From: Pseudodesulfovibrio piezophilus C1TLV30
GTDB lineage: Bacteria > Desulfobacterota > Desulfovibrionia > Desulfovibrionales > Desulfovibrionaceae
Assembly (NCBI RefSeq): GCF_000341895.1
Contig: NC_020409.1
Span: forward strand, 3,092,411 to 3,124,410
Length of the DNA stretch: 32,000 bases
Direction of reading: 5' to 3'
Shown here: positions 2,767-24,141 of the stretch, piece by piece
How the letters are laid out: every line of letters begins with the position of its first letter
Numbering within the stretch: the stretch's first letter is position 1
Made by a program: the position numbers and the translations under genes
The notes under the pieces: model-generated
What the model saw: the letters and a program-made list of their open reading frames with translations, nothing else
Told to the model about the DNA's origin: nothing
Database searches by the model: none

Positions 2767-2960
2767 GAGCAGAGGGCCGCTTCCCTGGAGGAGGAGACGA
2801 CTGAGAGCGTACATTGGGCAGCTTTGTTGAATGATTTTGCTCCAACAAGTTGATTTTTGGGTTCGTTTGGGGCGACAGTAGGTTCCGAGTTCGGGGGGAT
2901 CATTCCCTCTCTTTGGGAGAGGGGAATGGTTCCGGGCCGTGTCACATTATCGGAGCTGAT

Positions 2961-4361
2961 ATGCAAGCACTCAAACTGAAAGTCTTTCTCCTTTTCATTG
3001 CCTACACCCTCTTCATGTTGCTCACCATGGGGATGTATTGGTGGAATATTGATGCCTTTCGTGAACGGTTGACCATTATGGACGAATTTCATGATGTGGT
3101 TTCGGATATTCTCGAAACACGGCGTTACGAAAAAAACTTCATGTTCTACCCTGAACCGAACAGCTTGAAAGAAGCTTTGGTCTACCTTGACAGAGCTGAA
3201 AAAACCGTTGGTTTGTTGCAGCCTAAAATTATCGCTATAGTCGGCCAGGAAACCTATGGCAATCTTGGGATCAGCATAAGCGAATACCGGGAACTTCTTC
3301 ACCAGCTTGCCCAGGGCGATAAATCGGTCGCTGTTCGGACGCGGCAATATGGAGCACGATTGGTGGAGTCGGCTCAGGATTTGCTCAAAAAGAAACAGCA
3401 AAGTGTTCATAATGCGCTGGACAGGATTTTGTTCCTGCCTATCGCGGTCATGCTAACAGTTCTGATCCTGATCACCCTCGTGTACATCTTGCAGGCCCGT
3501 AAGGTCTTGGAACATCTGAAGTATGTGCAGCGGGCTGCGGACGGGGTAGCCAAGGGTGATTACGAGGTCATTCAGAACCTCAGCAGTGAAGACCCGATAT
3601 CCATTTTGATGCGTTCTGCTTTTCGTAATATGGCCGATGAGTTGGATACCCGACAGGAACAGCTTGTGGAAGCGCGCAAGCTGGTTTCCATTGGAACTCT
3701 GACGTCCGGCATTGCCCATGAATTGAATAATCCTCTGAATAATGTTTCCCTGACAGCGGATACCCTGCTGGAAGAGTTGGATGATCTGCCTCGTGCCGAG
3801 ATGCGTGAACTTCTTCAGGATATCATCAACGAAACAGGCCGGGCCAGTGAAGTGGTTCGTAACCTGCTTGATTTTTCCCGTGAGGAACAACGTCCATTGG
3901 CTCGCTTGAGTATGGCGACGGTGGTGGGGCAGACTTTGCGACTGGTCGGAAATCAATTGGCGTTGCACGGGATCAAGGTCGAAGTGGACGTGCCGGAGGA
4001 TTTACCCAGTATTCGTGGCGATTTGCACTATCTGCAACAGGTTTTCATCAATCTCTTCCTCAATGCCGATCAGGCCATGGAGCAGGGAGGACTTTTACGT
4101 GTCGTGGGGAGACAAAATGATGAACACTTGTGCGTCGATGTCATTGATACCGGGTGTGGCATGGACAAGGCGACTCAGGAGCGAATTTTTGATCCGTTTT
4201 TCACGACCAAACCTGTTGGTGAAGGCACTGGATTGGGACTTTCCATTATCTACGGTATTCTCAAGAAGCACGGTGGGACCATCAGTGTGGAAAGTAAAGA
4301 AGGCAAAGGGACGACATTGACTGTTTGTCTGCCAATCATGAATGCTGATGAGGGAGTCTGA
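2961..4361 (+). CDS. Membrane sensor histidine kinase (2 TM, extracytoplasmic sensor, HAMP, HisKA, HATPase_c)
   Basis: Start moved from 2850 to ATG 2961, because MQALKLKVFLLFIAYTLFMLL is TM1. Motifs seen: H-box SGIAHELNNPLNNV, N-box NLFLNADQAM, G1 DTGCGM, F-box FDPFFTTK, G2 GTGLGLS. Confidence 0.9.
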   Translation: MQALKLKVFLLFIAYTLFMLLTMGMYWWNIDAFRERLTIMDEFHDVVSDILETRRYEKNFMFYPEPNSLKEALVYLDRAEKTVGLLQPKIIAIVGQETYGNLGISISEYRELLHQLAQGDKSVAVRTRQYGARLVESAQDLLKKKQQSVHNALDRILFLPIAVMLTVLILITLVYILQARKVLEHLKYVQRAADGVAKGDYEVIQNLSSEDPISILMRSAFRNMADELDTRQEQLVEARKLVSIGTLTSGIAHELNNPLNNVSLTADTLLEELDDLPRAEMRELLQDIINETGRASEVVRNLLDFSREEQRPLARLSMATVVGQTLRLVGNQLALHGIKVEVDVPEDLPSIRGDLHYLQQVFINLFLNADQAMEQGGLLRVVGRQNDEHLCVDVIDTGCGMDKATQERIFDPFFTTKPVGEGTGLGLSIIYGILKKHGGTISVESKEGKGTTLTVCLPIMNADEGV

Positions 4362-5722
4362 TGCAAGAATTTCGTGCAGCTGTCATTGATGATGAGACTC
4401 AGGCGGCGAAACTTGTCGGCCGGGCCTTGGAAAAGCTGGGATTTGAAGTCGAGACCTTCGGGCTCGGGCACACTTTTCTGGCGCGTATGGCCGAGGACCC
4501 GTTTCAACTCGCTTTTATCGATCTTAAATTGCCTGATGTGAGTGGCATCGCCGTTCTCGAGTCCATCAAAACAGGATTCGAAAATATAGAGGCGGTCATC
4601 ATAACTGGTCATGCCAGCATCCCCTCTGCCGTGGAAGCCACAGCCAAAGGTGCATCGAATTATATAGTCAAGCCGTTTCGCTTGCAGGAGGTCCGGTCCG
4701 TGGCGCGTGAAGCGCTGGAGAAGCTCGAGTTGCGGGAGGAGAATCTCCGTCTCAAGGAAGCTTTGCGGGAAACGCCCCCCCTCAAGGATTTTTTGGGGTC
4801 CAGTCAGGTCATGCTCGATGTTTTTGCCATGATACGCAAAATAGCCGGAGTGAACTGTAATGTCCTGCTTCAGGCGGATACCGGGACCGGCAAGGAGCGT
4901 GCTGCGCGGGCGATCCACGATCTCAGCCCGAGAAAAAACAAGACATTTGTATCGTTCAACTGTGGTGGCTTTACGGAAGAACTCATCTCAAGTGAATTGT
5001 TTGGTCACGAAAAAGGGGCGTTTACCGGGGCCACTGCCACCAAGATAGGACTGCTGGAATCCGCCAACGGGGGAACGGTTTTTCTTGATGAGATAGGAGA
5101 AATGCCTCCAAATATGCAGGTCAAGCTGCTCCATGTGATTCAGGAGAGAAGTATCCTGCGGGTGGGAGGTACCCAGCCCATTGAACTTGATATCCGTATC
5201 ATTGCGGCGACCAATCGGGATTTGCAGGAAGCAATGGCAGCCGGAGAGTTTCGTGAAGACCTTTTTTACCGATTGAATGTCGTAAGTATTTATCTACCAA
5301 CTTTGGCAGAGCGAAAGGCGGATATTCCCCTTCTGGCGAATCATTTTCTTGAAACCTTCAACGCCCGTTTCGGCAAGGGGGTGAAGTCCATTTCCTCTCA
5401 GGCCATGGAAGTGCTGACACAATATAATTATCCGGGCAATGTTCGAGAGTTGGAAAATATTGTGCAGCGGGCAGTCGCTTTGGCGGAAGGGGACGTCATC
5501 GGGACGCGGGAGCTGCCGCCGGATCTGCTCAATCTCGCTTTCAGCAGCATTGGTACACCGGGGCTTCTGCCTTTGGAAGTCGTGGAGCGGCGGCACATTC
5601 AGCATGTTTTGGAGGCCACGGGGTATAATAAGGGCTTGAGTTGTACTATTCTGGGTATCCCTCGGACCACACTTTGGCGTCGGATCAAACAATATGGGTT
5701 GGATGCCGGCGACGAAGAGTGA
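4361..5722 (+). CDS. Sigma-54-dependent response regulator (NtrC-family enhancer-binding protein)
   Basis: Receiver domain with D54 (AFIDLKLPD). AAA+ domain with Walker A GTGKE, the GAFTGA loop (EKGAFTGA) and Walker B FLDEIGE. C-terminal Fis-type [20 protein letters not shown]. The ATG overlaps the kinase stop (TGATG). Confidence 0.93.
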
Positions 5723-5759: not shown

Positions 5760-5782
5760 GCGGCTACGGCCGCTTTTTTTTT
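5760..5782 (+). terminator. Rho-independent terminator after the HK-EBP pair
   Basis: Hairpin GCGGC-TACG-GCCGC followed by a run of 9 T, located 38 nt after the EBP stop. Confidence 0.75.
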
Positions 5783-5810: not shown

Positions 5811-5824
5811 GTTCATTCTGAAAC
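5811..5824. promoter_or_regulatory. Copy 1 of exact 14-mer GTTCATTCTGAAAC (candidate enhancer/UAS element)
   Basis: Identical 14-mer to 6019-6032. It contains TTCA-N3-TGAA dyad symmetry. Confidence 0.35.
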
Positions 5825-6018: not shown

Positions 6019-6032
6019 GTTCATTCTGAAAC
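6019..6032. promoter_or_regulatory. Copy 2 of exact 14-mer GTTCATTCTGAAAC (candidate enhancer/UAS element)
   Basis: Identical to 5811-5824. It lies about 107 bp upstream of the -24 GG of the sigma-54 promoter, a typical EBP binding distance. Confidence 0.4.
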
Positions 6033-6124: not shown

Positions 6125-6140
6125 TGGCATTGGCCTTGCT
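6125..6140 (+). promoter_or_regulatory. Sigma-54 (-24/-12) promoter
   Basis: TGGCAT-tggcc-TTGCT compares with the consensus TGGCAC-N5-TTGCW. GG (6126-6127) and GC (6138-6139) are separated by exactly 10 nt. It sits directly upstream of the USP operon and downstream of an NtrC-type activator gene. Confidence 0.75.
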
Positions 6141-6164
6141 ATTGGGCTGATGACGGAAAGAATT

Positions 6165-6596
6165 ATGAAGAACGTACTTATAGTAGTGGACGAATCGGAA
6201 TCAAGCCTTTGGCTGGCCTATTACGCAATGGGATTGACTCATCGTATTGCCGCCAAGGTCTCTATACTGTTGGTCATGGACAAGGAATACACCGACGTGA
6301 ATGAGGGCTCCGACGAATGGATCGGTTCACCGGAAAAGCGGTTGGAATCTGTTCTGGCCGAGGACCATTCCGAGAGGACTCATATCGATTTCTATGTGGT
6401 GCGAGGCAGAATGGAAGAGGAAGTCCCGAAATTCATTCGGGAGAATACCATTTCCAAGCTCTTTATCGGGAGTCCGCCGACCTGTCGGGCCGAGAGTTAT
6501 GCAAAGCTCATGAAGTTGATTGATACGGTGAATACGACGACCCACTGCGATGTGGAGGTGGTGCAGAAAGTTTCTGCACACACCAAGAGACACTAA
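6165..6596 (+). CDS. Universal stress protein (UspA-fold) family protein, single domain
   Basis: MKNVLIVVDESESSLWLAYYAMGL is a typical USP N-terminal strand plus helix. Start moved to ATG 6165 (GGAAAG 5 nt upstream), because ATG 6150 would coincide with the predicted sigma-54 TSS. No G-x2-G-x9-G(S/T) ATP motif is visible. Confidence 0.6.
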   Translation: MKNVLIVVDESESSLWLAYYAMGLTHRIAAKVSILLVMDKEYTDVNEGSDEWIGSPEKRLESVLAEDHSERTHIDFYVVRGRMEEEVPKFIRENTISKLFIGSPPTCRAESYAKLMKLIDTVNTTTHCDVEVVQKVSAHTKRH

Positions 6597-6733
6597 ACAG
6601 ATCGCCCTTTCAGTCATGGTTGTGAGGTGGATGGGCTGGTGACGGTATGGGCATGGCTCAACGCCGTAGACCGGAATAAAACGGTCGGGCACGGGGTCTG
6701 GATGATAGAAATCAAACCGTGGAGGAGTTCTTA

Positions 6734-7663
6734 ATGTTTCATATGTATCTTCCCATCGCCGGGAACAGCGTCAACGTATTCCTGGTTTTCGCCCTGGGAG
6801 GGTTCGTTGGCCTGCTTTCCGGCATTTTCGGTGTTGGAGGTGGGTTCCTGATGACCCCGTTACTTATTATGTTCGGCATTCCGCCGACCGTTGCTGCCGC
6901 ATCGGATTCCAATCAGATAGTTGGGGCGTCCACCTCGGGCTGTCTGGCTCACTACCGGTTGGGCAATGTGGATTTCAAGATGGGATTCCTGTTGCTTATC
7001 GGTGGTGTTCTTGGCGGATTTGCCGGGGTTCAGGTCATCAAGGTGCTCAAGGCCATGGGGAATGCCGACTTTTTGATCAATATCACATACGTTCTGATGC
7101 TTGGTGGTGTCGGGTCGTATATGTTCATTGAAAGCGTGCAGAGCCTGCGCAAGAAGACACCTGAAGTTGAAGTCGCTGCACCGCCCAAGAAAAAATCCCG
7201 GTATACGGTCATGTTGGAACGGCTGCCTTTCCAGACTGATTTCGCCAAGTCCGGTGTCCGCCTTTCCATGCTCATGCCTCTGGTTCTGGGAGTGTTGGTC
7301 GGGATACTCGCGGCTATCATGGGAGTCGGTGGTGGATTCATCATGGTTCCGATCATGGTGTATCTGCTTCGTATGCCCATGCATGTCGTGGTCGGTACCA
7401 GCCTGTTCCAGATATTATTTACCTGTATCAACGTGACCATCCTCCAGTCATACACAAATCATACTGTCGATTTCGTGCTGGCTGTTCTGCTGCTGCTCGG
7501 CTCCACCCTTGGAGCGCAGTTCGGTACACGTATCAGCCGCAAGCTGAAAGGCGAGCAACTCAAGATTCTGCTGGCCTCGCTGGTGTTGATTGTCATGGTC
7601 AAGATGCTGCTCAACCTGCTGCTCACGCCTGATGTGTTGCTTGCATACGCCGGAGGTCATTAA
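6734..7663 (+). CDS. TSUP (TauE/SafE, DUF81) family anion-exporter-like permease
   Basis: Two 4-TM halves each carry a G-rich motif: GIFGVGGGFLMTPLLIMFGIPPTVAAASD and AIMGVGGGFIMVPIMVYLL. ATG 6734 is preceded by GGAGGAG; the track start at 6719 is an upstream GTG. Confidence 0.85.
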   Translation: MFHMYLPIAGNSVNVFLVFALGGFVGLLSGIFGVGGGFLMTPLLIMFGIPPTVAAASDSNQIVGASTSGCLAHYRLGNVDFKMGFLLLIGGVLGGFAGVQVIKVLKAMGNADFLINITYVLMLGGVGSYMFIESVQSLRKKTPEVEVAAPPKKKSRYTVMLERLPFQTDFAKSGVRLSMLMPLVLGVLVGILAAIMGVGGGFIMVPIMVYLLRMPMHVVVGTSLFQILFTCINVTILQSYTNHTVDFVLAVLLLLGSTLGAQFGTRISRKLKGEQLKILLASLVLIVMVKMLLNLLLTPDVLLAYAGGH

Positions 7664-7665
7664 TC

Positions 7666-8397
7666 ATGAAAAATATTCTCTTCAACTGCATGATGGTCCT
7701 GGCTGCTCTGGTATTGCTGTGTCCAGCCGCTTCCGCTGAAACATCCTTGACAATCAGGCCGAATCTGGTCGGTATCGGGACCAATTTCAACGGGACAGAT
7801 CTGTCCATCTCAGGCACGGTACCCGAAGGGACTGCCGCAGTGATTCGTCTCATGGGCGAGCCTCGCGATGAATTCTTCAAGGAGAAAGGCAAGGCCTTGG
7901 GTGTTCTGTGGATGAATCTCAAGACTGTCGAAATCAAAGGAGTACCGGATGTCTTTCTGATGGGGACAGATGGTGTCAGCACCATCGATTGGGAGCACTC
8001 CGACCTTGGCTTCAAGGCTGTGAAAGGCGAGACCGATGATCTTGTTTTCGATGAGTTTATCAAACTTATGGAGAATGACGGGTTTTATGAAGTAGAAAAG
8101 GATGTTGTTCAATACAAACCTGCGGCAAATAGACAGCGGGGCTTCACGGCGTCACTTTCCATTCCTTCAGCCATGCATCAGGGCATTTACAGGGTAGAAG
8201 TTCTGGCTGTCAAAGACGGTCAGGTCATGGGAGTCGCTTCGGAAGAATTGCATACCAAGTTGACAGGTTTGCCTGCCATGCTGTCTGTATTCGCATTCGA
8301 CCATTCCCTGTTGTATGGTGTCGCCGCCGTTCTTATCGCTATTCTGGCCGGTCTTGCCATGAGTCTGCTTTTCAAAGAACGCGGAGGCGCTCATTAG
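7666..8397 (+). CDS. Secreted, C-terminally membrane-anchored protein, probably TIGR02186 / Alph_Pro_TM (PF09608)-like
   Basis: Signal peptide MKNILFNCMMVLAALVLLCPAASAE and a single C-terminal TM LLYGVAAVLIAILAGLAMSLLF. The block GEPRDEFFKEKGKALGVLWMNLKTVEIKGVPDVF resembles the family core as I remember it. It starts 2 nt after the TSUP stop. The family call needs an HMM check. Confidence 0.6.
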   Translation: MKNILFNCMMVLAALVLLCPAASAETSLTIRPNLVGIGTNFNGTDLSISGTVPEGTAAVIRLMGEPRDEFFKEKGKALGVLWMNLKTVEIKGVPDVFLMGTDGVSTIDWEHSDLGFKAVKGETDDLVFDEFIKLMENDGFYEVEKDVVQYKPAANRQRGFTASLSIPSAMHQGIYRVEVLAVKDGQVMGVASEELHTKLTGLPAMLSVFAFDHSLLYGVAAVLIAILAGLAMSLLFKERGGAH

Positions 8398-8413
8398 CGC
8401 AGGGAGTTCATAT

Positions 8414-11005
8414 ATGAACAGGGTGTTCGACTATATTCGCACTCGATTGCTGCCGGGGCGGCAAAGGGAACGACGTTCCCTGGCCGCCCTGTTCAGCCAT
8501 TTTCAGCGTGTACTGGAATTGAACAATCGAACCCTGACGACGATCGCCTCGATGCACAGCAAACTCGGCGGTGGCTATATATTTGATCTGCAATATTTGC
8601 GCAGTTCCAAACAGTATATGGTGGACACGGCTCGTGAATTGCTTGATGCGTTCGATGCCATGGCACCCGGAAAGTATCCTGAATTGTACGCGAGTTTTCG
8701 GGATATCCGTTCCAAGCTGGAAAGCGAACTGGAGCGCCGTCCTATTCTCCCTGATGTCATGGTCATTCCATTTGAAGACATCGGTCCCAAAGACATGGAT
8801 GCTGTGGGAGCGAAGAATACCAGATTGGGGATAATCGCCAAAACCTCTTCGGTGACAGTGCCGTCCGGCTTCGCAGTGACCACTTCCGCATATCTTTTGT
8901 TCATGGAACATAATGGACTGGGAGAGACGATCAAAGGCTATGAAGAGGCTTGGCGCGCCGGTAATCTTCCGGCCAAGGATGCGTCCGATACAATTCAGGC
9001 ATTGATTCTGGCAGGGACAATTCCAACGCGGTTGCGAAGAGCCTTGAACAGGGAAAGTGATGCCTTGCGTCGGAAACTCGATGACAAGGATGTCCGGTTT
9101 GCCGTTCGTAGCAGCGCATGGGGAGAGGACGGAGCCCTGTCCTTTGCCGGTCAGTATGACAGTTATCTCAATGTGACGTCAGAGGGATTGCTTGATGCAT
9201 ACAAAAAGGTGTTGGCGAGTACCTTTTCCCCATCGGCCATGGAGTATCGGCGAGAATACGATTTCAAACCAGATGAAGTCTATATGGCTGTTTCGGTGCA
9301 GGGCATGGTTCAGGCCAGAACCAGTGGCGTGATGTATAGTCTGTCGCCGGTCAATCCCAAGATGAATTGTATAGACATCGCTGGAGTCTGGGGGCTGGGT
9401 GCCCCTGTGGTTTCGGGGAAGGTCAAGGTGGACCGATTTGCAGTCTCCCGAGACTCCGGCCATGCGGTTTTGTCCGAGTCGATCGCTGAAAAGCCTTTGG
9501 CTCAATATGGCCAGCCGGGTGGTTCCGTGGAGATGGAACCTGTGCCGGAGGATTTGCAGGCCGTTCCGAGTCTTTCTTCGGAGGAGATTCATTTATTGGC
9601 TGTCACAGCAATGCGGCTGGAGCAGTATTTCAAAAAACCGCAGGATATTGAATACGCCTTTGATCAGGATGGAGCGCTTGTTGTTCTTCAGGCCCGGCCT
9701 TTGAGGATTGCCGTATGTGATGATGCCCAGTCCCCGGAGTTGAGCGACGCACTGAAAGCGTACCCGGTCTTGCTCAGTGGTGAGGGAGATGTCGGACAGC
9801 AGGGAGTCGGCGCTGGTCCAGTCTTTGTCGCCTGGGAAGGACGAGACCTTGAGACTTTTCCTGATGGCGCTCTTCTTGTGGCTCATGTCTCATCGCCTCA
9901 ATATGCTTCGATTTTACACCGCGCTTCAGGGGTTGTTACTGACATAGGCTCCCCTTTGGGGCACATGGCAACCATTGCCCGCGAGTACCGCGTCCCGTCG
10001 CTGCTCAATGCCAGCCGGGCCACTATGGTTTTGCAGGAAGGGGAGATGGTCACACTCGATGCCGAGCAGAAGACCGTCTATCAGGGGTTGGTCAAAGAAT
10101 TGAAGCTCCATGATTTCATGTGTGACCGTATGGAGGAGACCTATGAGTATCGGTTATTGAGAAGAATGCTCAAGCTCATAGAGCCCTTGAACCTTTTTGA
10201 CCCGACCGCAGGGAATTTCACTCCTCAGGGATGTCAGACGCTCCATGATATAGCTCGATTCATTCATGAAAAATCAGTGGAAATACTGACAGATATCCCT
10301 AATGCATCCGCAGCTGGGGAAGCGTGTCCTGGCGGGCGTCTGGAGCTTCCGGTTCCACTGGATTTGGTGGTGCTTGATATCGGCGGCGGACTTGCTCCGG
10401 AGTGTGCCGGTGGCTTGCATGGCCTGAGGACTCGGCGGACCATCCGGCTGGATCAGGTGGAATCTACTACGCTGCATTCCTTTGTGAACGGAATGACTCT
10501 GGATGGTGTCTGGCAGTCGACCCCGGTGCCGGTGGATTTTTCCAGTTTCATGTCGAGTATGACCCGTACTTTTTCGACCGACACGACCGGGGCGCAAAGG
10601 ATTGGACAGAATCTTGCGGTTATTTCCAATCAATATCTGCACTTGAGTCTCAAGCTTGGATACCATTTTACCATGATTGATTGCTATGAAAGTGTTGATG
10701 GCGTGAGAAATGTTGTTCAATTCCGTTTTGCCGGGGGGGTCACAGGAGTGACCAGGCGATCTCGTCGTGCCAAATTCCTTTCAAATGTCCTGAAGACATA
10801 CGATTTTTCCGTGACTGTCAAAGAAGATCTGGTCGTGGCACGGGCCAAGGGACGAGTCGCTCAGGATGTTCACTGGCTGATGTATATTCTCGGCGTCGTG
10901 GTGGCATACACCCGGCAATTGGATGTCTCCATGGTCAATGACGCTCAGGTATTGGAACACTGCGAAGAATTTGAACGCATCGTCAATCAGGCGATAAGTA
11001 ATTAA
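8414..11005 (+). CDS. PEP synthase / pyruvate phosphate dikinase-like phosphohistidine enzyme with non-canonical N- and C-terminal domains
   Basis: About aa 126-440 is a PPDK_N ATP-grasp region (GAKNTRLGIIAK, VPSGFAVTTSAY, FAVRSSAWGEDGALSFAGQYDSYLNV). About aa 480-560 is a PEP-utilizer swivel domain with GSPLGHMATIAREYRVP (His517, codon 9962-9964). The first ~125 aa and last ~300 aa match nothing I recognise, and I saw no PEP/pyruvate TIM-barrel motifs. Confidence 0.85.
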   Translation: MNRVFDYIRTRLLPGRQRERRSLAALFSHFQRVLELNNRTLTTIASMHSKLGGGYIFDLQYLRSSKQYMVDTARELLDAFDAMAPGKYPELYASFRDIRSKLESELERRPILPDVMVIPFEDIGPKDMDAVGAKNTRLGIIAKTSSVTVPSGFAVTTSAYLLFMEHNGLGETIKGYEEAWRAGNLPAKDASDTIQALILAGTIPTRLRRALNRESDALRRKLDDKDVRFAVRSSAWGEDGALSFAGQYDSYLNVTSEGLLDAYKKVLASTFSPSAMEYRREYDFKPDEVYMAVSVQGMVQARTSGVMYSLSPVNPKMNCIDIAGVWGLGAPVVSGKVKVDRFAVSRDSGHAVLSESIAEKPLAQYGQPGGSVEMEPVPEDLQAVPSLSSEEIHLLAVTAMRLEQYFKKPQDIEYAFDQDGALVVLQARPLRIAVCDDAQSPELSDALKAYPVLLSGEGDVGQQGVGAGPVFVAWEGRDLETFPDGALLVAHVSSPQYASILHRASGVVTDIGSPLGHMATIAREYRVPSLLNASRATMVLQEGEMVTLDAEQKTVYQGLVKELKLHDFMCDRMEETYEYRLLRRMLKLIEPLNLFDPTAGNFTPQGCQTLHDIARFIHEKSVEILTDIPNASAAGEACPGGRLELPVPLDLVVLDIGGGLAPECAGGLHGLRTRRTIRLDQVESTTLHSFVNGMTLDGVWQSTPVPVDFSSFMSSMTRTFSTDTTGAQRIGQNLAVISNQYLHLSLKLGYHFTMIDCYESVDGVRNVVQFRFAGGVTGVTRRSRRAKFLSNVLKTYDFSVTVKEDLVVARAKGRVAQDVHWLMYILGVVVAYTRQLDVSMVNDAQVLEHCEEFERIVNQAISN

Positions 11006-11023: not shown

Positions 11024-11413
11024 ATGACCACCTCAACAAAGACGAGTATTCTCATCCTCGATGACGAACCAATCGTTTGCAAACGGCTTCAACCTGCACT
11101 GGAAAAGATGGGGTACGAAGTCGAAAGCTTTTATGAGAGTGCCAAAGCAATGGTCCGAATTCAGGAACGGGATTTTGACATTGTTGTCACCGACCTGAAA
11201 ATGGAAGGAATCGATGGGATGCAGTTTCTTGCCGAAGTGAAGAAACGTTCACCATCCACCGAGGTTATCGTTATTACAGGCTTCGCCACGATGGATACTG
11301 CCAAGGAATCCATGCGCAAGGGCGTTTTCGATTTTCTGGCAAAGCCGTTCAAGCTTGGTGAAATCCAGGAAGTCATTCGGAAGGCGGAAGAACACATCCG
11401 CAAAGGTGAATAA
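11024..11413 (+). CDS. Stand-alone CheY-like receiver domain protein
   Basis: 129 aa with DD13-14 (ILILDDEP), phospho-acceptor D57 (VVTDLKMEG), T in VIVITGF and K in LAKPF. There is no output domain. GGAGGA SD. Confidence 0.9.
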   Translation: MTTSTKTSILILDDEPIVCKRLQPALEKMGYEVESFYESAKAMVRIQERDFDIVVTDLKMEGIDGMQFLAEVKKRSPSTEVIVITGFATMDTAKESMRKGVFDFLAKPFKLGEIQEVIRKAEEHIRKGE

Positions 11414-11454: not shown

Positions 11455-12252
11455 ATGGACATGCTGAAAGCCCTTGTCCCCGTGGAAATGACGTTGGCGT
11501 CCAACGTTGCCCTGCGGTACCTGTGCCAGAAATCCGACCTGCTCGGAATCGGTGTACAGCCTATTCATATTGAAGAACCGGATCACAAGCGGCATTCTTC
11601 GCAGACCGGTTGGATTCGCAAATCCTGGGAATCCGGGTTGCGACAGGCCGGGTTGGAGGAAGTCCGGCGTATCCTGAAGAGTGAGAAGCTGGATTGTTTT
11701 GTCCTTCCCAACCCTATCATTCGTGTTGGCTCCCGTGAAGATAAGATTCTCGAGGAACTGCGTCTTGGGTGGTATGACCTTTTTGTGGAAGGGGAGTTGG
11801 CCAATTTTAATACAGGGGAATTTCGCAAGCGCCTTCGGTCCCGCTTTTACAAGCAAATGCCATGTCCGGTTTTGATTGTTCGTAACATGATTCAATCAAA
11901 CAGACTGGTGGTGTTGCTGGATGAAAAGTCTGACATTGACGGGTTGATTTCAAAATTTTGTCGGTTTTTTGCCGATCAGTCGGTGGATTTTGATTTATGC
12001 GCTTATGCCATGGATGATCTACATCAGAATCCCCACCCAGATGAACTGCTTGCCGAAGCGTCACGGCTGCTGGAGGAAAAGGGATATATTCCAGCCAAGA
12101 CGTATTCTCTGCTCGGAGCACCGGACAGCGCTATCCAGGCCATGCATGAGTATGGCATGCTGATAGCTCACATCGATCGCAAGTCCAACTGCAAGTCCCC
12201 TCAGACCGAAGTGCTCGGCCTGGTTTCCTGTCCCATTCTCTTATGCTGGTGA
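11455..12252 (+). CDS. Hypothetical protein, possibly a degenerate tandem USP-like (adenine-nucleotide alpha-hydrolase fold) protein
   Basis: Two halves each end in a USP-like terminal strand (CPVLIVRN and CPILLCW), but no ATP-binding glycine motif is visible. GAGGTG SD lies 5 nt upstream. The gene is tightly packed in the operon. Confidence 0.5.
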   Translation: MDMLKALVPVEMTLASNVALRYLCQKSDLLGIGVQPIHIEEPDHKRHSSQTGWIRKSWESGLRQAGLEEVRRILKSEKLDCFVLPNPIIRVGSREDKILEELRLGWYDLFVEGELANFNTGEFRKRLRSRFYKQMPCPVLIVRNMIQSNRLVVLLDEKSDIDGLISKFCRFFADQSVDFDLCAYAMDDLHQNPHPDELLAEASRLLEEKGYIPAKTYSLLGAPDSAIQAMHEYGMLIAHIDRKSNCKSPQTEVLGLVSCPILLCW

Positions 12253-12273
12253 TTGAGCCAAGGGAGATTTTCG

Positions 12274-13140
12274 ATGAAATTACTCGTCGCCGTTGATGAA
12301 AATGCCTATAGCCGTTATGCGGTCAGCCAGGCAGCCAGATTGGCCGCCAATACCTGGCCGGATGTAGTCATGCTGGCTGTTGAAAAGAAACGTTCATACA
12401 TTGCTGAAGATGACTTGGAACAGGCTCAGGCTCATCCCAAGACCAGGCTCTTGCGTCGATACCGAGCTGATTTTCTGGAGGCTTTGGGGTCTGATGTCGA
12501 TCTGTATAGTCACGATGAAAACAGTCCTTTTACTCACACACAGCGAGCTGTTCTGGAAGAAGATACCTCCGGGCGCAAAGGTTTTTTTCTGCATGTCAGG
12601 AGCGGCAATCCGGTGAAGGCGATCATTACCGAGGCCAGGGAAGCAGAAAGTGATTGTATCATTATCGGGTGTCACCAGCACGAGGGAGGCTGGGGACGAG
12701 GCGCGGGTGTGCCGGGTAAGGTTGCGGATGCTGCTGACTGCTCTGTCTTTGTCATGCGTGAGAGCATGAATCCTTCCAAAGTCGTCTGCTGCCTGGATCA
12801 TGCCCATGTTACTCAGGAATCCCTTGAGCTTATCAATCAATGTGTGACTTTGTACGGTGCTCAATTAGAGGTCGTCGGCATCCTGAAGCGCGGAGAACTG
12901 CGAGAGGATGTGGAAGCAAAGATGGGCGAGGTTCTTGATTATTATCTGAGCCGTGGTGTGCAGGCACTGCTCCGAGTGGTTGATGAAGGTTCTTTGGAGG
13001 CATTTGTTGAAGCCGGAGGTCAGGATGATCTCATGGCTTTATGGTTGACTCACAAGTCTCCTTTGCAGCGGCTCTTGCCACGTCATCGAGTGGCTTCTCT
13101 GGTGAATCATTCTTCCTCTTCCATCCTGATCTTGCGCTGA
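12274..13140 (+). CDS. Tandem universal stress protein family protein
   Basis: MKLLVAVDENAYSRYAVSQAARLA starts domain 1, which ends ..CIIIGCHQHEGGWGRGAGVPGKVADAADCSVFVM. Domain 2 runs KVVCCLDHAHV... to ..HSSSSILILR. Start moved to ATG 12274 (GGGAG upstream); the track TTG is at 12253. Confidence 0.7.
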   Translation: MKLLVAVDENAYSRYAVSQAARLAANTWPDVVMLAVEKKRSYIAEDDLEQAQAHPKTRLLRRYRADFLEALGSDVDLYSHDENSPFTHTQRAVLEEDTSGRKGFFLHVRSGNPVKAIITEAREAESDCIIIGCHQHEGGWGRGAGVPGKVADAADCSVFVMRESMNPSKVVCCLDHAHVTQESLELINQCVTLYGAQLEVVGILKRGELREDVEAKMGEVLDYYLSRGVQALLRVVDEGSLEAFVEAGGQDDLMALWLTHKSPLQRLLPRHRVASLVNHSSSSILILR

Positions 13141-16380: not shown

Positions 16381-17157
16381 TTACGCTTCCTTTTTGAAGA
16401 TGATCAGTGGACAGTTCTTGCAGATATCAGCGCCGGGGAACCCGTCTCCGGGGCGTGTGATGGAGCTGCTGCCTGCCTCGATACGTGTCATAAGTCGGTC
16501 AAAAGTCGCACCGAATTTTTTGCCGGGAATCATGACATTGATTTCACCACGCTCTGTTTTTCCTGCATTGTAGCTGCCGGAACAGGCAGGAAGCATATTG
16601 AACTCCTGTTCAAGGAGTGTGTAGACATTACCGCCGCAGGCTGATGAATTCATGGTGATGCTTGGGCGCAGGGGATGGGTATCGGTTGCTGCCATGTAGT
16701 CGACAGCCAGATGGTAAGCCTGCATATTGTCACAGTAGAAATGGACAGTGTCCGGTTCATACAGTCCATCAATCGCACCCAGTGGAGCGACTGCGACTCC
16801 CAGAAGACCTTCTTTGAGCTGGGACTTCGACAGTATGAAGCGCTCGGCCTGCTCCGGGTCCGTGGTATATTTTGCATGTCCTTTGATCTCGCCGTCATCA
16901 ATCCCTTTCCAGCCGAAACTGTACTTGGCATTGCTACAACCCAGTCCTTCTATACCGGAATAGACTATTTGTCCTTTCATGCGTGCGCCGATCTCCCATT
17001 GACAGAAGGTCATGGATTTGAGTGGCGTATGGATTTCAGGTGCAGCGTCGTGAAAGGCGTCCAGCTCGGATTGGTCAAAGAAGAATTTGATCGCGATAGG
17101 GTAGTGATAGAGTCGAAGCTCCTTCATCAATACGTCCTGCATTTCAGAATAGGTCAT
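16381..17157 (-). CDS. DUF169 (COG2043) family protein
   Basis: The N-terminal LRLYHYPIAIKFFFD and the ~250-aa size match my memory of DUF169. GGGAGG SD lies 7 nt upstream of ATG 17157. Recognition is weaker than for the enzymes. Confidence 0.65.
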   Translation of the reverse strand: MTYSEMQDVLMKELRLYHYPIAIKFFFDQSELDAFHDAAPEIHTPLKSMTFCQWEIGARMKGQIVYSGIEGLGCSNAKYSFGWKGIDDGEIKGHAKYTTDPEQAERFILSKSQLKEGLLGVAVAPLGAIDGLYEPDTVHFYCDNMQAYHLAVDYMAATDTHPLRPSITMNSSACGGNVYTLLEQEFNMLPACSGSYNAGKTERGEINVMIPGKKFGATFDRLMTRIEAGSSSITRPGDGFPGADICKNCPLIIFKKEA

Positions 17158-19020: not shown

Positions 19021-20532
19021 TTAGAGTTGTGTTGCAGCGACTCGTTCCTCTTGGGTCATGGAGGCAAGTCGTTTGACTTCGGTCATGTCAAGACCAAGCC
19101 CTTCCGCGACGCGGGTGCCATAGTCCTCATGGGTCAGATAAAAGAGAGCGCATTGTCTGAGTTGAATCGGGGTTGGCACGCTCTCCATGCTTCCCAGGAT
19201 GTTGTTTATCAGATGGGTTCTGTCCTGATCCGACATAACTGTTCCGTAAAGGGTGCCTGGTTGGACAAAATCGTCATTCGGATGGGTGAATTCATGGCGG
19301 CCACCGACTCCTTCCAACGGAATATAGGGCTCATTGGAGATGTTGTCCGGGGCAGGGCCATGATAACTGTTGGGCCAATAGTTGGGGCCGCCTCCGCCAT
19401 TGTGATCCACGCGCATGGAACCGTCGCGTTGATAATTCTGTTCCGGCGCATGCTTGGGCTGATTGACCGGTATCAAATGATAATTGGGACCAAGCCGGTG
19501 CAGGTGGGTGTCGTGATAGGAAAAGAGACGGCCCTGAAGCATTTTGTCCGGCGACACGCCTATGCCCGGTACGAGGTTGCTCGGGTTGAATGCGGCCTGC
19601 TCGACTTCTGCAAAATAATTTTCAGGGTTTCGGTTCAGGACCATCTTGCCAACCGTGATCGGCGGGACTTCCTTGTGGGGCCATACCTTGGTGATATCAA
19701 AGATATCCCACCCAAAGTCTGCAACGTCTTCCGGGCTGAGAATTTGCATTTCGAGTGTCCAGGACGGGTAGTCCCCGGCCTCGATGGCGTTGCGTAAATC
19801 GGCAGTGGCGTGGTCCGGGTTTTTGCCGCACATTTCGGCTGCTTCCGGACCAGATAGATTCTTGATACCCTGATCCGTCTTGAAGTGATATTGAACCCAG
19901 TAATATTCCCCTTTGGCATTATACCACTTATAGGTATGGCTGGAATACCCATTCATGTTGCGGAAGGTCGCTGGTGTGCCTCGGTCGGAAAAGAGGACGG
20001 TCACCTGATGCATGGATTCCGGTGTGAGCGACCAGAAATCCCAAGCCATGGTCGGGCTTTTGAGGTTGGTGGCCGGGTCCCGTTTTTGCGTGTGGATAAA
20101 ATCAGGAAATTTCAAAGGGTCGCGGATGAAGAAGACCGGAGTATTATTGCCGGTCATGTCATAATTGCCTTCTTCCGTGTAGAATTTTATGGCGAATCCT
20201 CTAGGATCACGCTCGGCATCAGCGCTTCCCTTTTCCCCTCCTACGGTTGAGAAACGGACAAAGAGGTCGGTCTTTTTGCCTATTTCAGAAAGAAATGCGG
20301 CCTTGGTGTATTGCGTCACATCTGCAGTGACTTCAAAATACCCGTAGGCTCCGGTTCCTTTGGCATGGACGACTCGTTCAGGAATGCGTTCCCGATCGAA
20401 ATGAGAGAGTTTTTCGAGCAGGTGGACATCTTGCATCAGTGCAGGACCGCGGGCACCCGCCGTTACCGTATTCAAGTCGTTTCCAATCGGTGCCCCGAAG
20501 GCACTGGTCAGAGTCTTTTTGTCTTTGGTCAT
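19021..20532 (-). CDS. katA: Monofunctional haem catalase (small-subunit type)
   Basis: [24 protein letters not shown] (distal His), [27 protein letters not shown] and [14 protein letters not shown] (proximal Tyr region). Start moved to ATG 20532 (GGAGGAG upstream), giving 503 aa. Confidence 0.97.
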
Positions 20533-21149
20533 GTCTCTCCTCCGCTGCTTGTATCTGCCAGTCAAATCCATGGACCAGCCTTCGACCACTGGCAAATTGT
20601 TTTGGAGCGACTTTACCATGAAATTCTGATGAGCGGTACAGATATTTGAAAGTACTTATGGCTCCTTGTGCACGAGTCTCTGTTGGGTTGATACCCTGTA
20701 ATTCAGGTGTATTGGGGGAGAATTATCGCTCCCATTAGTCTCATGTCTCATTCCTTTTGCAGATATTTTCCCAGAGTGTCAGACTCTATTTAAGTGTTTC
20801 CTTCTTTTTGGGGAATGGTGCTGTTTTGCCATTTGATAACACTTGCAGGAGCGTACTTGGACCTATAGGATAACTGTCTCGGACGGGACGACTGCGAGGT
20901 TCTTGCGGTCAATTTTTCGGATGGGATCATTGCTGCCTGGTCATACTTTTCTCCAGCTCTGTGGACTGCGTGCATGACCTCACTGCCTGATCATGGTGGT
21001 GAGACGGCTTGTCGTTTCCACGAGAGTGTTTTTTTGATCGGCAGATGTGATTGCTTCCATAATCGATGACGCATCAGTCAGAAGGCTGGAAATCATCGGC
21101 AACGACCCTGGAGTGGTTACCGGGGTCGAAAGGATAGTTTGGATCGAAG

Positions 21150-21626: not shown

Positions 21627-22655
21627 TCACGAGATGGGGGTTTCTTCCATCATGAGTTCCGAAAATTGGTCGACTGAAGCTTCAGCCTTGGCCAGGGCTT
21701 CAAAGCAGGCAATGTGGGTGACTGCATCTCCCTTATAGACCGAGGGCAACGACTGCACGCCGATGACAACGCCGTTTTTGGGGGATTCCAATGCGTAGCT
21801 CTGATTACTGAATGGGTCATAGATTGTCCCGAGTATCTCGCCTTTTCGCACTCGTTGTCCCAGTTTGGCCCCGGCTTTGAAGACTCCGCTTGCAGGGGCA
21901 CGGCACCATGTTCGGTCATGAGCTATCTGCATGGGAACTTTTTTTCTGCGGGCAGTTTTACGTGGGGTGAGCATCCCGAGATGTTCCATCAGTGAGGTCA
22001 GTCCGCGCACTCCGGCCCGAATGGAGAGTTCATCGAAACGAAGTGCTTCGCCTGCCTCATAGAGTAGGGTTTTGACCCCGCATTCTTCCGCTGAATAGCG
22101 CAGGGATCCTTCGGCCCCGGCAACATTCAATGCCAGTGGGGCACCATAGGCTTCGGCCATACCGAGCACGACCTCATCATCCATGTTCCCCCGCAGGTGC
22201 GGGAGATTGGTCCGGTGATTGGATCCGGTATGGAGATCCACGCCGAATTGGCATGGTGCTACCACGTTTTCAAAGAGTACCTTGGCAAGCTCGGAAGCCA
22301 GAGAGCCTCCAGCCTTGCCAGGAAAGAATCGATTCAAATCTCTTCTGTCCGGGAGATAGCGAGCATTGGCGATGAATCCGTATATGTTGACGACCGGGAC
22401 CGCATAGAGAGTCCCGCTCAATCTTTGCAGACGTTTCATGCCGACCAACCGCCGGACAATTTCAATGCCGTTCATTTCATCGCCATGAATGGCAGCTGTA
22501 ATGAATAGCGCAGGTCCTTCCCGACGGCCGTGAAAAACGTGAACCGGCATCCCTGCTCCCTGGCGAAGCGATGTATCGGGTACTGGAAGTACCACGGTTG
22601 CAGATTCACCGGGAGCAACGGTTTTGCCAGCAATTTCTACGGGCATTCTCTTCAT
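21627..22655 (-). CDS. Succinylglutamate desuccinylase/aspartoacylase (AstE/AspA, COG3608) family zinc deacylase
   Basis: Zn ligand motif AAIHGDEMNG (H-x-x-E) and second ligand VDLHTGS. Start is ATG 22655 or GTG 22661, about 30 nt after the rimK stop. Confidence 0.85.
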   Translation of the reverse strand: MKRMPVEIAGKTVAPGESATVVLPVPDTSLRQGAGMPVHVFHGRREGPALFITAAIHGDEMNGIEIVRRLVGMKRLQRLSGTLYAVPVVNIYGFIANARYLPDRRDLNRFFPGKAGGSLASELAKVLFENVVAPCQFGVDLHTGSNHRTNLPHLRGNMDDEVVLGMAEAYGAPLALNVAGAEGSLRYSAEECGVKTLLYEAGEALRFDELSIRAGVRGLTSLMEHLGMLTPRKTARRKKVPMQIAHDRTWCRAPASGVFKAGAKLGQRVRKGEILGTIYDPFSNQSYALESPKNGVVIGVQSLPSVYKGDAVTHIACFEALAKAEASVDQFSELMMEETPIS

Positions 22656-22687
22656 GACCACCAGCCCTTGTGTCTTTCGGGGAGCTT

Positions 22688-23593
22688 TTACCCTTTGCCC
22701 CGAGTCTGGGTCTTGCCGGGTTTGGCATTCTTTTCAATGAATTTGATAATCTTGGCGGCAATATTCAAGCCAGTGGCTTTCTCGATTCCTTCCAGACCGG
22801 GAGAGGAATTGACTTCCATGACCACTGGTCCATGATTTGACCGCAGCAGGTCCACTCCGCATATGTTCAGGCCCATGATTTTGGCCGCTCTGACAGCGGT
22901 GGACCGTTCTTCAGGCGTGATTTTGACCTGAGTTGCAGTGCCGCCTCTGTGGATATTCGAACGAAATTCGTCTTTTCCGGCTGTCCGTTTCATGGCAGCG
23001 ATGACCTTACCGCCCACCACAAAGCAGCGGATGTCCGATCCCTTGGCTTCCTTGATGTATTCCTGAACCAGAATATTCGCTTTAAGCCCCTGGAAAGCCT
23101 GGATGACACTTTCTGCTGCCTGGCGATTCTCGGTCAGTACCACGCCAATGCCCTGAGTTCCTTCGATCAGTTTGACAACCAAGGGCGCGCCTCCGACCAT
23201 TTCGATGAGGTCACCTGTGAATTGCGTTGAGCTGGCAAACCCGGTGATCGGCAGGCCTATGCCCTTTCTGGAGAGGAGTTGCAGGCTCCTGAGTTTGTCC
23301 CTGGAGCGGGTAATGGCAATGGATTCATTGACACAATGGACCCCCATCATCTCGAACTGACGGACTACGGCACACCCGAAAAATGTGATGGACGCGCCGA
23401 TACGGGGGATAACGGCATCGACATTCGTGACCTGCTCACCCTTATAGTGAATTGAAGGGTTATGGGATGTGATGTTCATGTAACAACGAAGAGGATTAAT
23501 GACTTGAATGTCGTGACCGGCTTCTCTGCCTGCATCAGCAAGGGCTTGAGTCGAGTAGAGGCTGCTCTTGCGCGATAAGATGACAATTTTCAT
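22688..23593 (-). CDS. rimK: RimK-type ATP-grasp alpha-L-glutamate ligase
   Basis: [18 protein letters not shown].., [49 protein letters not shown] and [30 protein letters not shown] 23593 lies 1 nt after the upstream stop (23595-23597). Confidence 0.92.
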
Positions 23594-23594
23594 G

Positions 23595-24080
23595 TTAGAT
23601 TTCCCCTTTGATGTGCTCTTTGTAAATAGCGGCGGCAGTCTTCCCGCCAGTCTGCATGGACAGATTGGGATCGACAATCAATCGTCCCGACATTGCGTTT
23701 CTTCCCAGAAGCATCCTGAACTTCATTTCATCTCGATTGGTGAGGGTCAGCTCTATGGGCCAGGTCCGGCCCGCGATTTGAAGAGTGGTGCCTATGACAT
23801 ACCGCTTTTGTGTTTGTCCACCGGAATTCGTGACCTTTCTGCGGTCAACCAGAGGAGCAGTACACGCGATGGAGACCTCGTCATTTCCCTGCAAGGGGTG
23901 AATGTTGAACGCCACGAAGTTGACACCGTTCTCCTCGAACGGAGTTATGTCGAAGGCGTGTAGGGCAGAGGTTCTCGCCCCTGTGTCCACCTTGGCTTTG
24001 ATAGCCGGTATTTCTAGATCCGGCAGAGCGAGCCATTCCCGCCAGCCGATGATCATTTTGGGCCCTTTGGCTTGCGTCAC
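23595..24080 (-). CDS. Retropepsin-like protein of the DUF785 / 'ATP-dependent zinc protease' (RimB-like, COG4067) family
   Basis: [32 protein letters not shown] carries a D-T-G-A aspartic-protease-like motif. Start proposed at GTG 24080 (AAGGAGGA 6 nt upstream); the track start at 24161 is a TTG that overlaps the MscS gene. Confidence 0.8.
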
Positions 24081-24141
24081 TCTCTGTCCTCCTTCTGTCT
24101 CTTCTCGTGATTGGATGAGCCGTGGCCCTTTGGCATCGTGT

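Follow-up and report, generated by a model that had tools for sequence, protein, structure and literature searches.

What does a protein phosphorylate that carries the ATP-grasp and swivel-histidine domains of phosphoenolpyruvate (PEP) synthase, followed by a C-terminal domain that is not the PEP/pyruvate-binding barrel of that enzyme? This question is raised by an open reading frame in a 32,000-nucleotide stretch of the Pseudodesulfovibrio piezophilus C1TLV30 genome (NC_020409.1, positions 3,092,411 to 3,124,410), referred to below as the window, whose own coordinates are used throughout. A preliminary description had placed the gene, here called PpsA-like, at 8414-11005 and had assigned it 863 amino acids (aa). 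This was confirmed (+ strand, ATG start), and the product is 100% identical to a P. piezophilus protein labelled 'PEP/pyruvate-binding domain-containing protein'. The protein is best described as belonging to a widespread family, as yet unnamed, that is marked by a novel acceptor domain and by a receiver as its dedicated partner. It probably serves in signalling, as a kinase driven by ATP, and not in metabolism. More specifically, and with somewhat less than even confidence, we favour the view that it is an ATP-driven swivel-histidine kinase outside central metabolism, the dedicated partner of the receiver encoded by the following gene.

Domains of the PpsA-like protein

The gene and its parts are as follows.

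8414..11005, + strand: PpsA-like dikinase-type protein, 863 aa (ATG start; Pfam, NCBIfam and PDB sequence comparison)
8414..8758, + strand: N-terminal extension (aa 1-115), a predicted three-helix bundle (full-length model, conservation, no Pfam match)
8798..9706, + strand: ATP-grasp nucleotide-binding domain (PPDK_N, aa 129-431; Pfam E 1.2e-77; invariant catalytic residues; Foldseek matches to the ATP-grasp of RPH and PpsA)
9857..10069, + strand: swivel phosphohistidine domain (PEP-utilizers, aa 482-552; Pfam E 2e-16; His517 codon at 9962-9964)
10106..11002, + strand: novel C-terminal alpha+beta domain (aa 565-863), referred to as the C-domain, in place of the PEP/pyruvate TIM barrel (AlphaFold; no PDB, BFVD or Pfam match; 70 invariant positions)

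The ATP-grasp and swivel domains are homologous to those of PpsA and PPDK and stand in the same order, and the best PDB sequence matches were 8a8e and 2ols. Conservation was assessed in 118 full-length homologues (~860 aa, 41-77% identity), to which the statements of invariance in this protein refer. The ATP-grasp residues K134, R232-S233-S234, E238-D239, G246, D411/E413 and Q426/R428 were invariant in 118/118, as were R523 of the swivel domain and His517, the histidine of the phosphohistidine motif GSPLGHMATIAREYRVP. Both domains had been described beforehand as intact, which was borne out, and the conserved residues suggest that the ATP-to-His chemistry is probably retained. Because His517, the ATP-grasp residues and 70 positions of the C-domain are invariant, the gene is real and conserved, and its two unassigned regions are conserved domains, not junk. 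Judged from these alignments, the protein is neither a pseudoenzyme nor the carrier of a decaying domain, and homology places it in the PEP-utilizing dikinase superfamily. Neither a canonical TIM barrel nor a loss of His517 or ATP-grasp conservation, each of which the preliminary description had named as counting against it, was found in the window protein.

The N-terminal ~125 aa and C-terminal ~300 aa had been called unrecognisable, and indeed no family was assigned to aa 1-125 or 560-863: beyond PPDK_N and PEP-utilizers, a Pfam scan of the 863-aa protein returned no family even at E<=1. The NCBIfam PpsA equivalogs NF005057 and TIGR01418 aligned to aa 116-574 only, scoring 312 bits against a cut-off of 598 and 293 bits against 740, respectively. 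The protein fell even further below the cut-offs of the RPH (NF041857, 204 bits vs 999), PigC/RedH and PPDK (TIGR01828, 23.9 bits vs 843) models, and the PtsI models reached its swivel segment only, with 18-20 bits. PDB sequence alignments to PpsA (8a8e, 2ols) and RPH (5hv1, 5fbs) stopped at aa 563-574; those chains run ~300 residues further.

A similar boundary was seen at the level of structure. When the full-length AlphaFold model (pLDDT 80, pTM 0.71) was used in Foldseek, PpsA, RPH, HpeI and PPDK were matched over the ATP-grasp and swivel parts only. In this model the N-terminal extension is predicted to form helices at residues 23-52, 59-83 and 90-106, and it contains the invariant residues F30, L34, N37, L41, G53, F57 and D58. 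The extension had no Pfam match, and a homologue search made with it returned one fragment only.

The C-domain was modelled separately with AlphaFold2 from a 70-sequence alignment. The model was confident (pLDDT 82.4, pTM 0.77). It begins with helices, which are followed by a short beta-hairpin, a pair of helices, an antiparallel meander of four strands, one more helix, a hairpin and the C-terminal helices; this predicted topology is not that of a (beta/alpha)8 TIM barrel. A Foldseek search of the PDB with this model returned nothing at E<=1e-3, the top match being DR_1245 (YbjN/T3SS-chaperone-like fold), which was not significant (E 0.019, query TM-score 0.23). No match was found among the viral structures of BFVD, nothing was recovered from the PLSDB plasmid collection, and no family was found consistently in a Pfam scan of all 70 alignment members. 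A profile hidden Markov model (HMM) of the C-domain matched, among PDB sequences, only the tail of the swivel domain. Model topology, Foldseek and profile searches agree with the earlier statement that no PEP/pyruvate TIM barrel follows the swivel domain, and they also ruled out a divergent barrel.

Two other origins of the C-domain were considered and rejected. A cryptic DHp/H-box and CA core had been suggested by an HD..R..HE helix, a DIGGG loop and low-ranked matches to DesK; the hhalign probability was 0.3%, no Pfam signal was present, and the DesK match in Foldseek was non-significant (E 0.6, TM 0.14). Since the local hhalign probabilities were <=0.3%, the H-box-like helix does not indicate a relationship to histidine kinases. 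Internal duplication, whether of the ATP-grasp, the REC, the Usp or the N-terminal domain, was discarded on the same ground (local hhalign probabilities <=0.3%).

With its 70 invariant positions, the C-domain is the part of the protein richest in them. Its invariant or nearly invariant motifs are YEYRLLRR, C-x3-HD-x2-R-x2-HE, FMSS.TR, LGYHF, FRF.GGV, RRSRRA and TRQLD. The second of these, which lies in a helix, comprises C607, H611, D612, R615, H618 and E619; further conserved residues are Y750 and H751 of LGYHF, R771 of FRF.GGV, R782, R784 and R785 of RRSRRA, then D805, R810 and K812, and R834, Q835 and D837 of TRQLD.

It is very improbable that the protein is still an enzyme of the PEP synthase or PPDK type, making or using PEP through a non-homologous pyruvate-binding domain. 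The invariant Cys, arginines and carboxylates of the C-domain may be likened to the kinds of residue at the PEP site of PPDK and Enzyme I. In addition, members of the family are annotated as 'pyruvate, water dikinase' or 'PEP/pyruvate-binding domain-containing protein' and have been read as gluconeogenic (PMC13490349). What speaks against such an enzyme is that the protein scores far below the PpsA and PPDK cut-offs, that the TIM barrel is found neither by sequence nor by fold and is replaced by a 300-aa alpha+beta domain of no known fold, and that an extra helical extension of 115 aa is present at the N-terminus. Furthermore, the operon combines transport with signalling and is controlled by sigma54, and the mutant phenotype of a similar Desulfovibrio cluster is oxyanion sensitivity, not a defect of carbon metabolism (see below). 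The current labels 'pyruvate, water dikinase', 'pyruvate kinase' and 'PEP synthase' are misleading: whichever acceptor is used, 'PEP synthase / pyruvate, water dikinase' is wrong in several hundred species, and has already been read as gluconeogenesis in proteomics.

The preliminary description had proposed that the C-domain defines a new acceptor, either a small molecule or a protein, a role that the domain may have. The first possibility is that of a small-molecule dikinase, in which the C-domain would bind an anionic metabolite or oxyanion tied to the substrate of the TauE transporter encoded in the same operon and take the phosphoryl group from His517, and the receiver, phosphorylated by the neighbouring histidine kinase, would act only as an allosteric regulator. 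We regard this as the main alternative, and a serious one, although it is rather unlikely. In its favour, the C-domain is large and its invariant set (Cys, His, Asp, Glu and at least six arginines) is enzyme-like, and all biochemically characterised swaps of the third domain that were found (RPH; HpeHI, PMC12167813) use small molecules. In RPH, HpeHI and the phenylphosphate synthase type the cassette serves an acceptor other than pyruvate by way of another third domain, as is proposed for the window protein, and the ATP-grasp of RPH and HpeI was matched by Foldseek at E 1e-20 to 1e-22. However, RPH is arranged as ATP-grasp, RIF-binding domain and C-terminal swivel, whereas the window protein has the ATP-grasp, a central swivel and the C-domain. 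The RPH alignments that fit well cover the ATP-grasp only, and the C-domain has no fold similarity to the rifampin-binding (RIF-binding) domain.

To determine the distribution of the C-domain, 1.84 billion representative proteins were searched exhaustively with its profile. It was found in 1,530 representatives at 50% identity (E<=1e-3), 764 of them at E<=1e-30, and it is encoded in at least 579 species-level genomes. Among the best 150 representatives the domain sits at the C-terminal end, typically of a ~860-aa protein. Independently of the acceptor, this is a 300-aa domain present in at least 1,530 protein clusters without a Pfam family or structural relative.

The co-encoded receiver and the tandem paralogues

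The most informative clues to function, neither of which the preliminary description had noted, are the operon context and, within it, the gene that directly follows.

11024..11413, + strand: stand-alone receiver (CheY-like, NtrC-type REC), 129 aa, proposed phospho-acceptor or partner (Pfam E 1.5e-29)

Locus conservation was examined in 80 related loci from several Desulfobacterota orders. In 74/78 loci an orthologue of the receiver (56-97% identity) begins -4 to +235 bp (median 41) past the stop codon of the PpsA-like gene, and residues D13, D14, D57, T85 and K107 are invariant in 74/74 orthologues. The order PpsA-like gene, REC, paralogue recurs in an Acidobacteriota metagenome-assembled genome. 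Some apparent overlaps with the REC gene ('+0') were rejected as fusions; they arise from tandem paralogues.

Natural fusions were found nevertheless. The complete 987-aa protein P0266 is composed of the N-extension, PPDK_N, PEP-utilizers, the C-domain and Response_reg, and a receiver lies C-terminal to the C-domain also in P0275, P0288 and P0071. The four fused receivers keep the acceptor residues as well as the LDDEPxVCxRL, VVVTDLKM and KPF signatures of the stand-alone receiver, and they show 38-44% identity to it, compared to 26-34% to the receiver of the sigma54 regulator encoded upstream. A C-terminal receiver is the arrangement of hybrid kinases, the usual position of a regulatory receiver being N-terminal. 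Helix alpha1, the classical determinant of partner specificity, is nearly invariant in the stand-alone receiver, whereas in the same 49 loci the alpha1 helix of the cognate sigma54 regulator varies and has another sequence. Therefore, the receiver does not track the neighbouring histidine kinase and answers to a more constrained partner.

Because of the tight gene adjacency, the natural fusions and the near-invariant specificity helix, the context points to a protein acceptor, the co-encoded receiver, over a small molecule. The same observations speak against the small-molecule dikinase: alpha1 of the receiver differs from that of the histidine kinase's cognate regulator, and the fused receiver has the position expected in a hybrid kinase, not that of an allosteric input. 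Moreover, no substrate candidate is at hand, and the operon is devoid of biosynthetic or catabolic genes.

In several loci (L056, L060, L061, L062, L067, L068, L069 and L073; also L041, L064 and L085) two or three tandem PpsA-like paralogues surround one receiver. In the middle copy the ATP-grasp has degenerated (15-23% identity): K134, R232/S233, E238/D239 and G246 are mostly replaced and Pfam detects no full PPDK_N. This copy nonetheless retains His517 and R523, along with almost every invariant residue of the C-domain. All ATP-grasp catalytic residues are kept in the window protein and, in every locus, in the first paralogue. Since the middle paralogue loses the ATP-grasp residues and keeps His517 and the C-domain invariants, the conserved functional core is the swivel histidine together with the C-domain, i.e., the second half-reaction. 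Pseudo-kinase relatives, as recognised by these residues, occur in the family, and the window protein is not among them. The three-paralogue loci lack the two tandem-Usp genes present in the window operon, as if the two sets of genes were alternatives.

The grasp-degenerate paralogues have a parallel in HpeH, the swivel and substrate-binding part of a split dikinase, which catalyses phosphoryl exchange without its ATP-grasp partner (PMC12167813). For the small-molecule dikinase, this activity suggests a role for such paralogues and for the stand-alone C-domain of locus L081 (described below). The grasp-degenerate paralogues would also suit an ATP-independent exchange in which the protein acts as a phosphatase or sink, draining or buffering the phosphorylated receiver by Asp-to-His reversal, or merely scaffolds the transporter complex. 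His-Asp transfers are reversible in known phosphorelays, which also speaks for a sink. Nevertheless, we consider a sink or scaffold improbable, as the ATP-grasp catalytic residues are strongly constrained in the window protein and in the first paralogues, which indicates that ATP use matters.

The operon, similar clusters and a proposed mechanism

The PpsA-like gene takes fourth place in a series of closely spaced genes on one strand, in the order Usp, TauE/TSUP, TIGR02186-like, PpsA-like, receiver, 265-aa protein and tandem Usp. This unit and the regulatory genes and elements that precede it are listed below.

2850..4361, + strand: sensor histidine kinase (HisKA and HATPase_c by Pfam; homologue of >=250 bits in 56/80 loci)
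4361..5722, + strand: NtrC-type sigma54 enhancer-binding response regulator (REC, Sigma54_activat and HTH_8 by Pfam; in 57/80 loci)
5812..5824, + strand: candidate enhancer (upstream activating sequence) repeat TTCATTCTGAAAC, copy 1, 313 bp upstream of the -24 element, function inferred
6020..6032, + strand: candidate enhancer repeat TTCATTCTGAAAC, copy 2, 105 bp upstream of the -24 element
6125..6140, + strand: sigma54 -24/-12 promoter element TGGCATTGGCCTTGCT (TGGCAT-N5-TTGCT), preceding the Usp gene
6150..6596, + strand: universal stress protein with a single Usp domain (Pfam Usp)
6719..7663, + strand: TauE/SafE (TSUP family) anion transporter (Pfam E 5.5e-50)
7666..8397, + strand: Alph_Pro_TM / TIGR02186-like membrane protein, TauE-associated (Pfam E 3.4e-35; TIGR02186 match)
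11455..12252, + strand: divergent tandem-Usp-like protein, 265 aa (no Pfam or NCBIfam match; hhalign to the downstream Usp family)
12253..13140, + strand: tandem universal stress protein, last gene of the operon (Pfam Usp)

The TauE gene (67-94% identity) and the Alph_Pro_TM gene are each present upstream of the PpsA-like gene in 70/71 eligible loci, and a Usp-like gene lies downstream in 50/67. The 265-aa protein aligned with the Usp family of the next gene over 254 columns (hhalign probability 97.6%, E 4.6e-12); it is therefore a divergent tandem-Usp paralogue, and the operon encodes three Usp-type proteins. In 40/70 eligible loci a strict sigma54 consensus is present at the corresponding relative position, and just two other + strand sites were found in these loci. 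The gene of the NtrC-type regulator is followed by an intrinsic terminator (5760-5773), and TTCATTCTGAAAC occurs in two exact copies, compared to 0.09 expected by chance; the repeats are candidate binding sites of the adjacent NtrC-type activator. The true start of the first Usp gene is probably the ATG at 6165, which is preceded by a GGAAAG Shine-Dalgarno sequence, and not the annotated 6150.

A similar gene set has been described in other sulfate reducers. For D. vulgaris and D. alaskensis G20, Korte et al. (2014) reported a 'nitrate cluster' whose annotation is poor, comprising TauE (DVU0251/Dde_0598), an adjacent hypothetical gene (DVU0250), a PtxB-like gene, a histidine kinase gene (a pseudogene in D. 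vulgaris, DvH), the receiver DVU0247 and the PPDK-like DVU0246, a protein of 744 aa for which only the ATP-grasp and mobile domains were annotated (PMC4001038). Transposon mutants in the TauE, hypothetical, receiver and PPDK-like genes were all nitrate resistant, those of G20 being also mildly sick on thiosulfate, and a leaky transporter of thiosulfate was proposed by the authors (PMC4001038). The system was later cited as such (PMC9723548). In our search of the literature the DVU0246/Dde_0604 loci were mentioned in this paper only. The nitrate cluster shares with the window a TauE gene, an adjacent small membrane or hypothetical gene, a stand-alone receiver and a protein with PPDK_N and mobile domains. 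It differs in gene order (TauE, hypothetical, PtxB-like, histidine kinase, REC, PPDK-like, phosphatase), and DVU0246 is shorter than the window protein and probably lacks the N-extension.

A DUF169 gene is located at 16381-17157 (- strand), ~5 kb downstream of the window operon. A gene of this family, Dde_0597, likewise stands at the start of the G20 nitrate cluster, and mutants in it are nitrate resistant (PMC4001038); the resemblance may be coincidental or reflect a loose linkage. D. vulgaris has, in addition, a second sigma54-controlled 'transmembrane transport' operon, DVU2956-DVU2964, with the highly conserved clade-B TSUP protein DVU2958 (PMC4641369, PMC5840216). The window TauE is unusually conserved across orders and may belong to the DVU2958 clade B rather than to the DVU0251 lineage, and DVU2957-2964 could be the closer counterpart of the window operon.

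In Dissulfuribacter thermophilus, the TauE DITHS69_1990, the TauE-associated DITHS69_1989 and a 'PEP synthase' were more abundant during thiosulfate disproportionation, the last being assigned to gluconeogenesis by the authors (PMC13490349). This 'PEP synthase', A0A1B9F8F1, carries two locus tags, DITHS69_1988 in a table and DITHS69_1161 in the text (PMC13490349). If the former is correct, its gene adjoins the TauE pair and probably belongs to the PpsA-like family.

The published genetics can be read in more than one way. Nitrate resistance would also be explained by a small-molecule dikinase, through loss of a futile nitrate-dependent drain of ATP (our reading of PMC4001038). Another conceivable acceptor of the phosphoryl group from His517 is a Usp-family protein or a cytoplasmic loop of TauE or of the TIGR02186-like protein, with the receiver acting as a regulator or phosphate sink. 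Three co-transcribed Usp-type genes, the frequent presence of a Usp-like gene downstream and the absence of the tandem Usp genes from three-paralogue loci, as if they were interchangeable with the paralogues, are in keeping with this. A precedent is M. tuberculosis VadK (Rv1127c), a truncated PPDK that autophosphorylates and acts as a regulator, working by protein contacts with metabolic enzymes (PMC13400623). VadK is likewise an ATP-grasp and swivel-His protein with a regulatory function outside central metabolism, but it is a truncated protein that lacks a third domain, and its description was not found to mention a receiver partner (PMC13400623); the window protein has a large conserved replacement domain, the N-extension and a dedicated receiver. 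Transfer to a Usp protein or the transporter is improbable in our view, since the Usp genes are much more divergent (25-80% identity) and are found less regularly than the receiver, and since in the representatives whose architecture was checked the C-domain was never seen fused to Usp or transporter domains.

For the kinase-receiver pair, the reading that we favour, the following mechanism is proposed. The intact ATP-grasp would phosphorylate His517, presumably by the dikinase chemistry of PpsA, PPDK and RPH (ATP -> AMP + Pi + His~P). The swivel domain would then carry the phosphoryl group to the C-domain, which would dock the receiver, as a docking or a catalytic module, so that Asp57 becomes phosphorylated; the choice of Asp57 is suggested by genomic linkage, fusions and conservation. 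The phosphorylated receiver, which has no output domain, may act by protein contact on the TauE/TSUP and TIGR02186-like module and/or the Usp proteins. The outcome would be controlled uptake of a sulfur oxyanion, thiosulfate or sulfite being the suggested candidates; this part of the proposal draws on the published genetics of the similar cluster. The three-helix N-extension is a likely regulatory or oligomerisation input, and the whole unit would be transcribed from the sigma54 promoter under the adjacent histidine kinase and NtrC-like pair.

By analogy, such a protein would function like Enzyme I of the nitrogen phosphotransferase system (EI-Ntr), or like a hybrid histidine kinase, built on a PpsA chassis. 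The resemblance to both lies in the proposed logic only, i.e., autophosphorylation of a histidine and transfer to a small phospho-carrier that regulates transport, although some PpsA-like homologues also share the C-terminal receiver of hybrid kinases. Unlike histidine kinases, the window protein has no HisKA/DHp or HATPase_c core by Pfam or hhalign. It also differs from Enzyme I in having neither the PEP-binding barrel nor the HPr-binding domain, and the donor would be ATP, via the ATP-grasp.

Several observations weigh against this mechanism. The evidence for His-to-Asp transfer consists of linkage, fusions and conservation. A domain of 300 aa with 70 invariant residues exceeds the needs of a docking surface, and the helix with C607, H611, D612, H618 and E619, together with arginines R771, R782, R784, R785, R810 and R834, looks like a catalytic or a ligand- or metal-binding site; comparison of the C-domain with the DHp-CA kinase core gave an hhalign probability of only 0.3%. 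The adjacent receiver is missing in 4/78 loci, a Nitrospirota locus has the order paralogue, paralogue, histidine kinase with no receiver between them, and a conventional histidine kinase, which could be the donor to the receiver, is encoded nearby in 56/80 loci. A separate receiver gene is retained in the hybrid locus L083, so that the fused receiver there is a duplicate, as in hybrid kinases, and not a replacement. The C-domain also occurs alone in an unrelated context: protein P0068 (318 aa; L081, 7001-7957, on a 3.98-Mb contig) has all conserved C-domain motifs and is encoded between an ABC transporter and a DUF202 gene, and neither an ATP-grasp nor TauE nor a receiver is encoded in its vicinity. 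P0068 may represent an autonomous form of the domain, or else a relic. Finally, the window protein is linked to DVU0246/Dde_0604 by the shared gene set, which makes these proteins candidate orthologues only.

The most general form of the proposal, which we advance more cautiously still, is an unrecognised class of response-regulator kinases. In this class an ATP-grasp and swivel-His protein would phosphorylate the Asp of a single-domain receiver via a new alpha+beta domain, independently of HisKA/HATPase_c, and would gate a TSUP sulfur-oxyanion transporter widespread in sulfate-reducing and sulfur-disproportionating bacteria. If the phosphorelay operates in this way, it would be a second, structurally unrelated route to receiver phosphorylation, with ATP-grasp and swivel His instead of a Bergerat-fold kinase, and a widespread class of kinases would be overlooked in censuses of two-component systems that are limited to HisKA/HATPase_c proteins. 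Whichever acceptor is used, the findings offer a concrete, testable explanation for the nitrate cluster, whose loss renders Desulfovibrio nitrate resistant, a trait relevant to the control of oil-field souring and to the regulation of thiosulfate/sulfite transport by sulfate reducers.

Stand-alone domain copies and other genes of the window

The apparent stand-alone C-domain protein P0018 was rejected as an assembly frameshift artefact, every operon gene being split in its locus (L082). Locus L072 is frameshifted as well (6279-8870), and several of the short C-domain proteins in databases result from frameshifts in long-read assemblies. Caution is needed with database counts of stand-alone C-domains; only P0068 appears genuine.

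The window operon and the hybrid locus L083 each have a Metallophos gene close by; this is a coincidence, as the two proteins are unrelated. The remaining part of the window has no relation to the operon. It encodes, at 19021-20619, 22688-23677, 21627-22661 and 23595-24161 (all - strand), a catalase and a RimK-type ATP-grasp ligase located by a succinylglutamate desuccinylase/aspartoacylase-like protein and a putative ATP-dependent zinc protease. Further along are genes for CorA, an inositol monophosphatase, an RTX-repeat protein and an 833-aa TPR protein.

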